Of a DNA stretch of 34,757 bases, positions 2-20,185 are shown in pieces. This DNA comes from Gemmatimonadota bacterium (GTDB lineage Bacteria > Gemmatimonadota > Gemmatimonadetes > Gemmatimonadales > GWC2-71-9). A program made the position numbers and the translations under genes. The notes beneath the pieces were generated by a model that did not search any database, was not told the DNA's origin, and was given only the letters and a program-made list of their open reading frames with translations. The stretch's first letter is position 1. Each line of letters starts with the position of its first letter. The DNA is taken from NCBI GenBank assembly GCA_036679645.1, contig JAZDCY010000038.1, positions 1 to 34,757 on the forward strand. Direction: 5' to 3'.

Positions 2-766
2 GGCCGGCGGTCGCGGTCCCGTCGCAATCAGCGGTTCACCCCGGCCGAATGGCAGCGCGTGCACCGGCTGTTGCAGAGGCAATGGAGTCCCGAGCAAATC
101 GCCGGCTACCTGCGGCGGCACCGCCGCCTCCGCATCAGCCATGAAACGATCTACCGCTACATCTGGGCGGACAAGCGCGAGGGGGGGAAGCTGTACATCC
201 ATCTCCGGGGTACATGCAAGCAACGCCGTAAACGCTATGGCCGCTACGATAGCCGCGGCCGCCTGACGGGCAAACGCCCTATCACCTCCCGCCCCGCCGC
301 CGTTGCGCGTCGGGCCCGCGTCGGCCACTGGGAAATCGACACGATGCTCGGGGCTGGTCAAGCGGGGGCCTGCATCCTGACACTGGTCGAGCGAAAGACC
401 GGCTACGTCCTGATCGGCCAACTGCAGGCGCGCACGACGGCAGAAGTAAACCGGCGCGCGACCCAGCTGATTCGACGCCAGCCCCGCGCGGTCCGCACGA
501 TCACTGCTGACAACGGAACTGAGTTCCATGGCTACACCGCGATCGAGCAAGCCACCCGCGCACGCTTCTACTTCGCGACGCCACACCACGCGTGGGAACG
601 CGGCACCAACGAAAACACCAACGGGCTCATCCGCCAGTACTTGCCCAAGAAACAGAGCATGGCGCACGTCACGCAACACGACTGCAATCGGATCGCCACG
701 AAACTCAACACACGGCCTCGAAAACGGCTCAACTATCGCACTCCAGAGGAATGCTATGAACCATAA
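2..766 (+). CDS. IS30-family DDE transposase, 5'-truncated by window edge
   Basis: Frame open from base 2; motifs WSPEQIAG, ISHETIYRYI, GHWEIDT, TITADNGTEF, WERGTNENTNGLIRQYLPK, LNTRPRKRLNYRTP. Confidence 0.95.
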   Translation, partial: GRRSRSRRNQRFTPAEWQRVHRLLQRQWSPEQIAGYLRRHRRLRISHETIYRYIWADKREGGKLYIHLRGTCKQRRKRYGRYDSRGRLTGKRPITSRPAAVARRARVGHWEIDTMLGAGQAGACILTLVERKTGYVLIGQLQARTTAEVNRRATQLIRRQPRAVRTITADNGTEFHGYTAIEQATRARFYFATPHHAWERGTNENTNGLIRQYLPKKQSMAHVTQHDCNRIATKLNTRPRKRLNYRTPEECYEP

Positions 767-773
767 TCTTCAA

Positions 774-799
774 TGTTGCACTTCAAAGTTGATACTAAA
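774..799 (-). repeat. IS30 right terminal inverted repeat
   Basis: Minus strand TTTAGTATCAACTTTGAAGTGCAACA (26 bp); same length and pattern as the IS30 IR as I recall it (TGTAGATTCAATTGGTCAACGCAACA); 7 bp after the transposase stop. Confidence 0.85.
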
Positions 800-1240
800 C
801 GTCATCGCTGAGCGGCTGTTGTCGGATCCCACGAGTCACTCCCCAAGGAGCCGGATCTCCTTTGGATGTGCGATCTCGGATCGGCCCGCATCCCCCACCC
901 GGCGGAGTAAGCCGGGAGCGACGTTCCAGCGCTCTCCCGCGTCAGTGACAACCGTGACGGTCTTCCGGTTGTAGCGAGTCAGCATCCCAACCACCGGTGG
1001 GCGGGCGTCAGGGTGAAACTCAACACGGTCGCCAATTCGAAACTCAAGCATCGCGGCATGCGCACGCCTCTGCTCGAGAAAGCGCAGGCGTTGAACGATG
1101 CGGTGGTTCAGGTCGCTAAGTTCTGCTTCCGTCAGCTTGTCGATATCAATCTTCATTGACAGCTCCGGGCCTTGATGTGGCGATCACCTCGCACATGGCA
1201 AACCGTGATCGCGACTACCAACCGTGGCGATGACGCATAA
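800..1240 (-). mobile_element. Integron gene cassette (first position), attC disrupted by IS30
   Basis: On the minus strand it begins G/TTATGCGTCATCGC (1241-1227) and ends GCGATGACG (808-800), the exact complement expected just before an R'' box GCATAAC; single ORF with RBS; adjacent to intI. Confidence 0.75.
836..1156 (-). CDS. Hypothetical cassette protein, 106 aa (N-terminal helix plus predicted small beta-barrel)
   Basis: ATG with GGAG 6 nt upstream; FRIGDRVEF...GMLTRYNRKTVTVVTDAGERWNVAPGLL has an SH3/KOW-like strand pattern (inference). Confidence 0.8.
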   Translation of the reverse strand: MKIDIDKLTEAELSDLNHRIVQRLRFLEQRRAHAAMLEFRIGDRVEFHPDARPPVVGMLTRYNRKTVTVVTDAGERWNVAPGLLRRVGDAGRSEIAHPKEIRLLGE

Positions 1241-1260
1241 CTCGTTGTATACGTTGTAAC
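1235..1260 (-). other. Candidate attI recombination site
   Basis: Minus strand GTTACAA-CGTATAC-AACGA-GTTATGC: core GTT box, 5-nt spacer, degenerate left box; no attC-type partner arm upstream; further GTTAGGT/GTTAGAA boxes at 1305-1294. Confidence 0.6.
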
Positions 1261-1460
1261 ACAGCGGTGACCTCGACCGCCTGTAGGGTTCATTTCTAAC
1301 CTAACCCTTTCGCGAACCTCAGAAAACCGCCCACTTCATGCGCGCTCGGCGTGGAGTGGCGGGGCGTAGCCGAGAGCAAAAAGCGACACGTGGGAGCGCG
1401 TAATTGCGTGCTGCGTAAGCGAAATTACCCGCGTTGGAGGCGACTACGGGGCGGAATGCG

Positions 1461-2124
1461 TCATAGAGCGTCCGCAGGGCTGCGGACGCCGAGTCTGCCT
1501 CGGTTCAGCACATGCGTGTAAATCATCGTGGTCCGGACGTCCCGGTGGCAAAGCAGCTCCTGCACAGTGCGAATATCGTAGCCGGATTCGAGAAGGTGAG
1601 TGGCGAACGAGTGACGGAATGTGTGACACGTCGCGCGCTTGGCAATCTCGGCCGACGCGACCGCCCGGCGCACGGCGCACGGCGCATGGCACATTCGACG
1701 GATGCCAACGGTGACGGCACAGCGCTCCACTCGCACCATCACGGTACCGACGCCGTGCCGGAAACACCCACTGCCATACCCAGTCGGTGATCGCACCCGG
1801 GAGCTTGCGATGTAACGCACCCGGTAAGGAGACTCCACCAGCGCCCGTGGCCGCGTCGCGCCGGTGCAGCGCACGTACCCGCGCCAGATGCTGCTGCAAC
1901 AGCGGTAGCTCGGCCTGCGGCAACATCGTGACACGCCCACGAGCGCCCTTCGGCTCACAGACGCGGACCTCGAGCTCCGCCTCGCCGAGTGCCTCGACAC
2001 GCCGCCGGCCCGCATACCGGACATACGCCTCGAGCCACCGGACGTATGCCTGCTCGGTCCGCCGACTGTATTGCCGCACCCGAATCGCACGCCGCACCTG
2101 GACGAGGAGCTTGTCATCCGACAT
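1461..2124 (-). pseudogene. intI: Integron integrase, internally deleted and frameshifted
   Basis: N-terminus [25 protein letters not shown]; IntI-specific patch [31 protein letters not shown]-terminus in a second frame [46 protein letters not shown]; box I (LLYGxGLR) region absent. Confidence 0.93.
1666..1686. repeat. (CGGCGCA)x3 tandem repeat at the intI frameshift
   Basis: Three perfect 7-mers; removing one joins the two IntI frames as [20 protein letters not shown]. Confidence 0.9.
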
Positions 2125-2220
2125 ACCCCACTCTGACCACAACCCGCCACCACACCGGTATCAACCGAGCGCACCGCGAACCGAACTGGCGCAACCTACC
2201 GGCAGGCAGCCACCCAACGC

Positions 2221-2293: not shown

Positions 2294-3553
2294 CTACTCG
2301 GACAACATCTCCACCCCATCGATCCGCAGCCGTACGATGTACTGCACGTCCAGATCGTCACGCCATACACCGTAGATCTTGTTCTCGACAATCACCCGCG
2401 GCGCAAACCGATCCGGCATCGTGACGACACCCAGGTAGCGGCCCCCGCGGTCCAGGACGTCCCAGCTTGGTGAGCCGAACTCCTCGAGGAAGTTGGAGGC
2501 GTCGATCTGGTCATCCGGAAGGTCAGACACCGCGCGAACGTGCTGGACCCAGATCGACCCCTGGGGACCCATCTGAATTTGGATGAACGCGGGGAGCGTC
2601 TCCCCGAAGCTGACCCGCTCCAGCAGACGGCCAATGAAAGTGGGCGGAACCGCCTGCTCCTCGAACAACTCCCGGAACAACCGGAGAATGAGATCCTTGT
2701 CGCCATCGGTGACAGGGCGCAATTCGAACGGCATCGTGACTACCCGCGTGAGGCTGTCGGACCGCGTGTACTCGCTGATGCGATACGCGTCACTGATGCC
2801 GCGCAGCAGCTGCCCGTCATCAGTGAGGCGCCAGGCCGTTTCCGGTGCGTAGATCTTCCACGCGGGAAGGCCGCCGCCAAAGCTGATGGTCTCGCCCGAG
2901 GCGAACGACGTGATCGTGTCCGTGATGCTGCCGTCCGGCCCGACGAGGAAGATGAAATCCTGCGGGGTCTCCCCCTCCTCACCCGTGATGAGCGGTCGCA
3001 CCTGCATGGCCACCAACCCGCTCGGCGTAGTCTGCCACGCCATCGGGAGACCTTGCGACTGGAAGTCCATAGGGAAGCTGCTGAGGACGCTCCCATCCGG
3101 AGCGTATCGGTTGACGCGCTGATTGGCCATGTCGGGCACTAGCAACGTGTCGCCAGCGGCCACCACGACGGCAGATCCTCCTGCCGCCGCAGCACCGATC
3201 TCTCCCGGTCCGCTTCCCGGACCGCCAATCGTCTGCTCGTATTGCCCCTCGGCCGAAAAGACCTTGACGTGCTGTCCCTGGGTGTCGAGCACGAACATCC
3301 GCCCGTCCGAAGCCACGTCGATACCGCCAACCCGACCAAACTGGTACTCGGGCTCCTCGTCCAACGACCCGATCCGCAGTTCCTCCACCACCGTCCATTG
3401 CGTCTCTTCGGTCCAAACGCCCTCCGGGGTGTTGGAGACCATCTGCACGCCCGCGCTGTCGATAATGGAGCCCGCCCATTGGGCCTCGCCCGCGGCGCAG
3501 GCCGCCGCTGCCACCATGGTGAGAAGCGCAGCGCCGTTTTTCATCGTGATCAT
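2294..3553 (-). CDS. 6-bladed (NHL-like) beta-propeller lipoprotein
   Basis: Signal peptide with AAAC lipobox; YQFGRVGGIDVASDGRMFVLD, IGGPGSGPGEI, WDVLDRGGRYLG; AGGAG abuts the ATG at 3565, so the ATG at 3553 (or 3544) is the more likely start. Confidence 0.85.
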   Translation of the reverse strand: MITMKNGAALLTMVAAAACAAGEAQWAGSIIDSAGVQMVSNTPEGVWTEETQWTVVEELRIGSLDEEPEYQFGRVGGIDVASDGRMFVLDTQGQHVKVFSAEGQYEQTIGGPGSGPGEIGAAAAGGSAVVVAAGDTLLVPDMANQRVNRYAPDGSVLSSFPMDFQSQGLPMAWQTTPSGLVAMQVRPLITGEEGETPQDFIFLVGPDGSITDTITSFASGETISFGGGLPAWKIYAPETAWRLTDDGQLLRGISDAYRISEYTRSDSLTRVVTMPFELRPVTDGDKDLILRLFRELFEEQAVPPTFIGRLLERVSFGETLPAFIQIQMGPQGSIWVQHVRAVSDLPDDQIDASNFLEEFGSPSWDVLDRGGRYLGVVTMPDRFAPRVIVENKIYGVWRDDLDVQYIVRLRIDGVEMLSE

Positions 3554-3765: not shown

Positions 3766-4160
3766 CCTAGAATCCTCACTGCCAACAACCCCGCATTCTT
3801 CGCGTTGCCGATTCCAACCGTTCCTACCGGACACCCCGGCGGCAGTTGCGCGATCGCATAGAGCGCATCCACACCACGTAACGGTCCCACATCCAGCGGC
3901 AACCCGATCACCGGAAGATCCGTGAGCGCGGCCACGGCACCGGGCAGCGCCGCCGCCAATCCCGCACCGGCAATGATGACGCGATACCCGTTCTTCTTGG
4001 CGTCCTTCGCGATCTGCGCCGTCCTTTCGGCGTCGCGATGGGCCGAGGAGACGACGAAGTCGTAGCCCACCCCGTGCTCTTTGAGCACGTCGCAGGCCTT
4101 CTGCACGCGCTCGCGGTCGCTCTCAGAGCCGACCATGACGAGAACAGGTTTATCGCTCAT
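3756..4160 (-). CDS. purE: AIR carboxylase / N5-CAIR mutase family protein (short form)
   Basis: VMVGSESD, SSAHR, AGLAAALPG, LPVIGLP, GVDALYAIAQLPPGCPVGTVGI, NAGLLA. Confidence 0.93.
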   Translation of the reverse strand: MSDKPVLVMVGSESDRERVQKACDVLKEHGVGYDFVVSSAHRDAERTAQIAKDAKKNGYRVIIAGAGLAAALPGAVAALTDLPVIGLPLDVGPLRGVDALYAIAQLPPGCPVGTVGIGNAKNAGLLAVRILGGR

Positions 4161-13581: not shown

Positions 13582-13602
13582 TATGCGTAGTCTCCTCGAT
13601 AT

Positions 13603-13693
13603 GAGATTAGAGATCGGAGATCGGAGATTGGAGTTGGCGATTGGCGATTGGCGAATCGCCAATCTGTAATCTCCAATCCTAATCGCCAATCAC
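13603..13693. repeat. Heptamer-repeat palindrome A
   Basis: GAGATTA GAGATCG GAGATCG GAGATTG GAGTTG GCGATTG GCGATTG GCGA-A-TCGC CAATCTG TAATCTC CAATCC TAATCGC CAATCAC. Confidence 0.9.
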
Positions 13694-18593: not shown

Positions 18594-18668
18594 GATTTGA
18601 GATTTGAGATTTGAGATTGGTGATTGCTCTACCTCACGACTGCAATCTCCAATCTCTAATCTCCAATC
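18594..18668. repeat. Heptamer-repeat palindrome B
   Basis: (GATTTGA)x3 GATTGGT GATTGC-N14-GCAATC TCCAATC TCTAATC TCCAATC. Confidence 0.9.
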
Positions 18669-20185
18669 CTACTGTCCCCCGTGGTGAACATCGTGACATT
18701 CGAGCGCAATTCATCGCCGGCCGTGCGGGCGAGATCGAGAAGACGATTGGGCCATACGCCAAAGAGGAGCAACGCCAGCGCGGCAGATACAATGACGGTT
18801 CTCGCTCCACCCGTGAAGTCGTACACGCCACCCGGCTCGGGGCGATCCTCCACCGGCGCCCGCATGTACATGTTCATGATCACGGGGAGGTAGTAGCCCG
18901 CCGACAGGACGCTCGCCAACACGAGCAACACCGCCAGGAGGCCCTGGCCCGTTTCGATAGCGGCAGACAGGATGTACCACTTGCCAATGAAACCCGCGGT
19001 GCCCGGGAAACCAAGCAGCGAGAGCATGAACACCGCCATCGCGAGCGCGGTCCACGGCCGTCGCTGTGCGAGCCCGGATAGATCGTCGATCATGACGTCG
19101 CTCTCGCCGTCACGCCCCGCACTGGCGAGGATCGCAAAGGCGCCGACCGTCATGAGCGTGTACGCAAAGGCATAGAACAAATAGGCTGCCGCACCGATCG
19201 CCGTCCCGCTGGCCACCGCGACCAAGAGATAGCCGGCGTGCGCGACGGACGAGTAGGCGAGCATTCGCTTGAGACGTCGTTGCGCCAGTGCAATCAGGTT
19301 GCCTACGATCATCGTGATGACAGCAAGCCACCATACGAGTCCCTGCCACACCGTGATCGCGTCGCCCAGGGCAACCACGGCAATGCGTATTAACGCTGCG
19401 AACGCCGCCGCCTTGACCGCCGTAGCCATGAACGCCGTGACCGGCGTAGGGGCGCCATCATACACATCCGGTGCCCACATGTGGAACGGCACCGCCGCCA
19501 CCTTGAACCCAAAACCGACCAGGAGCAACGCAATGCCGAACCCAAGCATCGGTGTCCCGACGAGACGCCCGTCACCCAGCTGGAAAGCGATGGTCGTGAG
19601 ATTGATGCTGCCCGTGGCGCCGTAGATGAGGGCGATCCCGTACAACAGGAACGCGGACGCAAATGCGCCCAGCAGGAAGTACTTGAGCGCCGCCTCCGCC
19701 GACGACCCGCTGCGCCGGCTGATCCCGGCCAACACATACACCGCGACCGACATGACCTCCAGCCCGAGGAAGATCTCGATCAGATCGTTGCCCCCCACCA
19801 TCAACATCATGCCGAGCGTAGCGAAGAGGAGCAGTACGTAGAACTCGGGCACGATGACGCGCTCGCGTCCCAGATACCCGAGCGACAGCAGCACGGTGAA
19901 GATCGCGCCGATCAACAAAACCGTGGACGCGGCAAACCGAAAGCCGTCGAGCGCTACCATGAGCGCGATGCCCTCCGGTTGCGGCGACGCACGCCACAGC
20001 CAGAGCACGGGAATCAGCGTCGCAACGAGCCCCCCGAGCGCCAAGTGTCCCGCCAGGCGATGATCGTCAGCTCCGCGATGGCGCCACGCCGCGACGAGCA
20101 GCAGCAGCAGGGCCCACCCGGTGAGCACGATCTCGGGAAGCAACGCGAAGGCGATGCCGCTGGGTGTGGAGAGATCGACGGGCAC
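18656..20185 (-). CDS. nuoN: NADH-quinone oxidoreductase subunit N
   Basis: EAALKYFLLGA, GFKVAAVPFHMWAPDVYDGAP, KRMLAYSSVAHAGY, GFIGKW. Confidence 0.97.
   Translation of the reverse strand: MPVDLSTPSGIAFALLPEIVLTGWALLLLLVAAWRHRGADDHRLAGHLALGGLVATLIPVLWLWRASPQPEGIALMVALDGFRFAASTVLLIGAIFTVLLSLGYLGRERVIVPEFYVLLLFATLGMMLMVGGNDLIEIFLGLEVMSVAVYVLAGISRRSGSSAEAALKYFLLGAFASAFLLYGIALIYGATGSINLTTIAFQLGDGRLVGTPMLGFGIALLLVGFGFKVAAVPFHMWAPDVYDGAPTPVTAFMATAVKAAAFAALIRIAVVALGDAITVWQGLVWWLAVITMIVGNLIALAQRRLKRMLAYSSVAHAGYLLVAVASGTAIGAAAYLFYAFAYTLMTVGAFAILASAGRDGESDVMIDDLSGLAQRRPWTALAMAVFMLSLLGFPGTAGFIGKWYILSAAIETGQGLLAVLLVLASVLSAGYYLPVIMNMYMRAPVEDRPEPGGVYDFTGGARTVIVSAALALLLFGVWPNRLLDLARTAGDELRSNVTMFTTGDSRIGD

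Follow-up and report, generated by a model that had tools for sequence, protein, structure and literature searches.

The elements described as targeting attC sites that we found in the literature are RNA-guided: IS1111 elements by a seekRNA, and group IIC introns. According to the available text of PMC3001079 and PMC11187229, the IS1111-attC group (ISPa21, ISPst6, ISKpn4) is monophyletic, sits at the 5' end of attC in antisense to the array, and relies on a DEDD transposase guided by a seekRNA. Group IIC-attC introns such as S.ma.I2 use the attC bottom strand, are also antisense and part an ORF from its attC; transcription from Pc is hindered by S.ma.I2 (excerpts of PMC3001079). In the portions of PMC9333248 used here, IS30 is a copy-out/paste-in element that moves via an IRR-IRL junction, with 26-bp repeats and a 2-bp target duplication; its targets are either nearly palindromic hot spots or its own ends, and targeting of the ends is strict in orientation. 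A search of open-access full texts (main articles rather than supplements or ISfinder records), including the accessible parts of PMC4889954, PMC12444791 and PMC8527097, gave no account of an IS30 element that targets attC.

The element studied here belongs to the IS30 family by its DDE transposase, its 26-bp repeats (imperfect in relatives) and a short target duplication (read in relatives). With IS30 of E. coli, as far as the sources describe it, the clade shares the NF033563 DDE transposase, 26-bp terminal repeats, a short duplication and a length of ~1.1 kb, but its attC target is one-sided and used in a single orientation, its duplications are 3 bp long and its ends are strongly unlike. 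A further difference is its short (~317 aa) transposase, which lacks the extra N-terminal segment of the long type. The fixed, antisense site near the attC 5' end recalls the IS1111-attC group, which works alike in the text available; however, the clade is not a member, as its enzyme is of the DDE rather than the DEDD (IS110/IS1111) type, it makes a duplication and it is placed outside R''. Group IIC-attC introns, by their partial descriptions, are retroelements with a reverse transcriptase and without inverted repeats or transposase, whereas here there is only a transposase ORF.

The IS30 end and the cassette in the window

The window, meaning the whole stretch of 34,757 nucleotides that was analysed, is one entire contig (G000:C33), and its first base falls within an IS30 transposase. 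On the minus strand it holds, in order, a broken integron integrase, an attI-like site and a single cassette (Table 1). The transposase scores 277.6 bits against NCBIfam NF033563 (IS30), where the cut-off is 80; a search for PDB relatives of the fragment found none. With its stop codon at 766 and the repeat starting at 774, there is no seekRNA non-coding region downstream of tnp.

Table 1. Features at the left end of the window and the basis for each.
Feature	Position	Strand	Basis
IS30-family element, 5' part lost at contig end	1..799	+	NF033563; X24 unitig; predicted full length 1084 bp
IS30 transposase ORF lacking its 5' part, frame open; DDE motifs WEIDT / ITADNG / GTNENTNG	2..766	+	NF033563, alignment
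26-bp right inverted repeat (IRR)	774..799	+	identical repeats at C6:270-295 and C32:56128-56153, flanks different
-35-like hexamer TTGATA inside IRR	789..794	+	sequence; hexamer pairs in relatives; pairing with left-end -10 predicted
Predicted 3-bp target duplication, right copy	800..802	+	relatives; 800 = complement of R'' first base
Cassette 3' end, 9-nt complement of cassette start	800..808	-	sequence
106-aa cassette ORF of an unnamed family that is common in bacteria	836..1156	-	profile and cluster searches
Cassette start: R' box GTTATGC (1241-1235) and 8-nt extension	1227..1241	-	sequence; X6 contig matches 800-1241
Putative attI-like site (GTATAC, 5 nt, GTT)	1241..1270	-	downstream of intI; C86 parallel
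Integron integrase pseudogene, oriented as cassette	1461..2142	-	TIGR02249, Pfam

The cassette starts GTTATGC-GTCATCGC (minus strand, 1241-1227). The sequence GCGATGAC-G (808-800) follows 27 nt past its stop codon and gives way to the 26-bp right inverted repeat (799-774), so that complementary R' and R'' boxes flank one ORF, as expected of an integron gene cassette; the attC hairpin that should follow the ORF would lie beyond the contig. Given the genome composition, the chance of such a 9-mer complement at most 60 nt from a stop is ~4e-4. Re-reading the sequence confirmed every coordinate that an earlier note on this DNA gave for the IS30 end, the ORF and the cassette boxes. Its placement of the junction at the R'' edge of an attC also holds; the repeat directly abuts the first R'' base, and the nine nucleotides there are the complement of the cassette start.

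The 106-aa ORF has no match in Pfam or NCBIfam; in the Atlas it falls with clusters whose members are hypothetical proteins (0.96-0.97). In sequencing run X6, one contig (record 31) matches exactly positions 800-1241, with 14 differences, and has other flanks. Given these limits to the match, 800-1241 is a mobile unit, and the X6 version of the cassette likely carries no IS30 element. No IS-free version of the cassette appeared among 401 genomes of the phylum or in 59 metagenome loci, and the protein homologs L131 and L132 come without matching attC ends. A sigma-70 consensus promoter was looked for in window 700-1500 and not found. Elsewhere in the window, short heptamer-like repeats form an inverted pair near sucC (13598-13691), with a copy after nuoN (18640-18671).

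The integrase of the window survives as TIGR02249 pieces in two frames, each under the cut-off, with ~80 codons missing and a frameshift. A second integrase gene of the genome (C86:51790-52780) is likewise broken and is followed by a similar GTATAC..GTT arrangement; both integrases examined face their arrays. If the array at the window locus is frozen, the broken integrase is a more likely reason than the IS30 insertion.

No left end of the IS30 element occurs anywhere in the assembly, and the loose-end consensus left of base 1 mixes three contigs (agreement 0.59). Run X24, which may come from the source sample, served only for extending the contig leftward. A unitig of 869 nt from this run, with the depth of a single copy (97 vs 94.9), reaches 512 nt left of base 1. 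Aligned to the relative L137, the unitig covers the left repeat and the flank GTTAGGCAG, ends at the G of this flank and shows 5 differences in 44 nt; the L137 left end maps 285 nt beyond base 1 along it. From this alignment follow a 1084-bp element and a G at -9, which supports a left side of the window copy that would fit the geometry of its relatives. The attC arm predicted by the earlier note to the left of the element is thus backed through L137 rather than by direct reading of letters.

The 26-bp IRR is present three times in the genome (window, C6 and C32). The repeat on C6 closes another cassette at the same base: this cassette starts GTTAGGC-AGCGC and ends GCGCT-G, followed by the repeat. 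The IS30 copy there is truncated, its left part and the attC being gone. The copy on C32 (56128-56153) lies away from any attC. In other words, this nucleotide holds two of the three right ends in the genome.

Several further arrangements were seen alongside these copies. On C32 (56128-56194) and in L159, the right end is fused to an internal piece of a transposase gene, as if the element had attacked another copy. C6:1-5400 is a cassette array without a nearby integrase and with several toxin-antitoxin-like cassettes (labelled by inspection). Two 140-bp elements with short inverted ends in this array (2955-3094 and 3797-3936; 97% identical) lie within attC between L'' and R''; we take their ends to be IS1182-like, and L027 has a similar end. 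Another element, presumably of the IS110 type to judge from its ORF, stands 1 nt beside the attC R' box in three different cassettes (C6:921 onward, the start of C96 and L027:1195).

Register and orientation among relatives

Relatives were drawn from three sources, namely the 401 phylum genomes, genomes in GTDB and metagenomes, and their left ends were placed by their own motif, independently of the flank. Four duplicate left ends and L047 (protein too short) were dropped, and long-type loci with unplaceable ends were left out of the tree and the counts. Sequencing runs with small shares were not taken as evidence of habitat. In a quick IQ-TREE tree of 122 rows, the window and 92 relatives form a clade (SH-aLRT 99); its named members span six phyla, and the closest are mostly Gemmatimonadota. 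Of the 29 copies outside the clade, 5 form a second lineage and the other 24, largely of the same phylum, served as controls. The right inverted repeat is 26 bp long in the relatives as well.

GTT stands exactly 9 nt outside the left end in 70 of the 92 clade relatives and in none of the 24 control IS30 copies, a comparison in which the clade copies are related rather than independent and come in many cases from metagenome assemblies. At none of the remaining offsets between -3 and -25 do more than 6 clade copies have GTT, and 18 of the 92 have GTT at neither -9 nor -13. The -13 register is that of a monophyletic sub-lineage of four (L040, L042, L088, L105), which has GTT there and not at -9; since it is confined to one branch, the distance follows the transposase lineage. 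These counts uphold the systematic targeting of attC that the earlier note had raised for this IS30 lineage.

A foldable attC adjoins the left end in 54 of the 70 copies at -9, while 16 show no fold, by a fold filter that had no null control. Of 57 foldable sites, 43 have single-base bulges on the near arm only and a single one has them on the far arm only; 4 have them on both arms and 9 on neither. This bias identifies the near arm as R'' and the strand as the attC bottom strand, which is the arrangement in the window. The left end of clade elements is toward the attC, and their transposase is antisense to the cassettes. Genome G045, with 36 attC in two arrays, illustrates the preference: all four copies are at R'' and none is at R'. 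A T precedes GTT at 4/4 occupied and 7/33 empty sites of G045, a post hoc contrast that fails in G385. On the other side of the element, 21 of 48 copies have in their right flank a cassette start whose complementarity to the junction spans at least 6 nt (null 1.3%); in a side check on right-end-only copies, which still includes four duplicates, 10/56 have such a complement (null 0.5%).

Many of the metagenome matches (L133-L191) are right-end remnants without transposase, and L135 is a lone right end directly after GTTAGG-CCG.

The second, long-type IS30 lineage (L226-L230, L253-L258; further loci are L029, L196, L197, L203 and L204) is a separate branch of the tree (SH-aLRT 98), with 38-42% identity, a length of 1227-1229 bp and 2-bp duplications. 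GTT stands at -9 in 8 of its 11 copies as well, although the arm concerned is R': the extra base is on the far arm, and the downstream genes are on the same strand. These sequences, from few genomes and one family, point to an independent origin of attC targeting in the long-type lineage.

Fate of the attC beside the element

Target duplications in the IS30 family are 2-3 bp. In the clade, a 3-bp duplication is found in 23 of 56 relatives, a count that leaves out the loci of genomes G481 and G612, against a mean of 4.8 and a maximum of 13 in 5000 permutations; matches of 2 bp are at chance level. The duplicated triplet consists of the first R'' base and the two bases before it. Because it begins with the seventh base of GTTRRRY, R'' is entire on the attC side, and in G045 the occupied attC sites fold like their empty neighbours. 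With R'' whole and the hairpin beside the left end, the element is therefore located between ORF and attC, inside the cassette. Judging from these sequences, the 3-bp duplication likely restores R'', and the attC is predicted to stay usable. Loss of the attC is a secondary event only, as in the truncated C6 copy.

No matching 3-bp duplication is present in 33 of the 56 copies. This may be due to misassembly across repeats, to exchange between copies or to a one-ended pathway. In G045, a 9-nt match between R'' with its flank and the cognate cassette start is present in 27/30 intact but 1/4 IS-bearing cassettes, and the left junction of L034 is identical to the start of the L016 cassette, suggesting that IS30 copies may swap attC sites with each other. 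The G045 positions concerned are L223:1450 and L225:5097.

Proposed mechanism, alternatives and meaning

Fixed register and orientation, 3-bp duplications above chance and intact hairpins beside the element are what an explanation has to cover. The reading we favour, and consider probable, is that this IS30 clade inserts at one nucleotide and in one orientation, outside R'', by copy-out/paste-in of a circle, recognizing the R''-spacer-L'' arm as a duplex, with the duplication restoring R''. The element would arrive as a circle, an intermediate taken over from the IS30 family by analogy. The ends of relatives carry -35-like and -10-like hexamers, which are predicted to form a promoter across the circle junction; no circle or IRR-IRL junction was found among the loci examined, where contigs rarely retain such forms. 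The transposase would then read the arm in double-stranded DNA, from one side, and two unlike ends would fix the orientation of insertion. In line with this, target information in the clade is on the attC side only, and not in a nearly palindromic hot spot, and left and right ends differ by a mean of 10.2 of 26 positions (81 copies) vs ~4 in non-targeting copies. Ahead of the SPEQI helix, 72/87 clade proteins and 0/28 others carry a basic S-R/K-R/K motif, a candidate determinant of target reading. Once the duplication had rebuilt R'' and left the attC usable, integrase excision would carry the element as a passenger within the cassette. The element would benefit from a landing site that is safe, repeated and horizontally mobile, with neither the ORF nor the attC harmed.

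In another IS30, unlike ends were seen at a different short repeat, four times (L028, L192-L194), a hint that asymmetric ends may accompany oriented targeting in general.

That the element mistakes the attC arm for its own right end, by the IS30 pathway of inserting next to an inverted repeat, is in our view unlikely. Arguing for it, the left end always abuts the arm, the duplication is absent in more than half of the copies, and IR-targeting by IS30 yields exclusively IRL-IRR junctions and sequence-conversion products (in the portions of PMC9333248 available). The R'' arm also matches the element's own IRR at 8.6 of 26 positions against 6.8 for the R' arm (44 copies). Counter to this, the gapped comparison of R'' with R' shows no significant difference (p 0.10), the arm consensus lacks the repeat's inner TGTTGC core, and the 3-bp duplications far exceed chance, the missing ones fitting exchange between copies. 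When tested, this explanation gained little from the match counts, as shuffled arms retaining GTTRRR already reach 7.6. We also give a low probability to a transposase that is directed to the foot of the hairpin or cruciform formed when attC is extruded, or that the integrase brings to the site. The targets do belong to attC families that are unrelated to each other, with Vibrio-type repeats and Gemmatimonadota sites among them, the cut is at the foot of the stem, and the second lineage takes the mirror position at R'. However, the foot of a cruciform has two equivalent sides and each lineage uses one, and the duplicated sites of L008 and L063 are R-like in sequence but without a fold; both integrases of the genome are broken, though the insertion may be older. 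Conserved target positions coincide with conserved attC positions, and sequence reading and structure reading are therefore not separated.

The earlier note had held that the insertion breaks R'', destroys the attC and locks the cassette in place. A single R'' base does remain on the ORF side, the C6 copy is without left part and attC, and right-end remnants are numerous. Yet relatives retain a complete GTTRRRY on the far side of the element, with the foldable attC at the left end, and the unitig of the window copy aligns through the G of the L137 flank, so that locking has become very improbable. Least credible of all, to the point of near dismissal, is that there is no targeting and that random insertions merely persist in dispensable cassette arrays. 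IS are frequent in arrays, occurring in 12% of CALIN and 23% of complete integrons (accessible part of PMC4889954), but survival bias cannot give a single nucleotide and orientation, and the register histogram, with the controls never at this site, refutes random insertion.

If the favoured reading of a duplex arm by the transposase is true, a protein-only DDE transposase with single-base, single-orientation insertion at a largely structure-defined site would be a new solution to targeting. The natural variants (-9, -13 and the R' side) make its determinant mappable, and oriented insertion beside an unbroken attC is a prospect for tools. Targeting of attC would also account for some of the IS load already described in cassette arrays. 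By analogy with S.ma.I2, the IS30 element here may impede Pc transcription; more broadly, the effects of such elements could include transcription blocks, the splitting of arrays and a reshuffling of cassettes that needs no integrase. More tentatively, and with the balance still against it, we should consider the possibility that integron targeting arose two or more times among the DDE transposases of the IS30 family, in one lineage at the R'' edge and in another at the R' edge, with lineage-specific rulers that spare the attC while the elements ride cassettes across phyla. Given their shared register and orientation, recombination between copies could then precisely exchange attC sites and entire blocks of cassettes, independently of the integrase and even where intI is dead.
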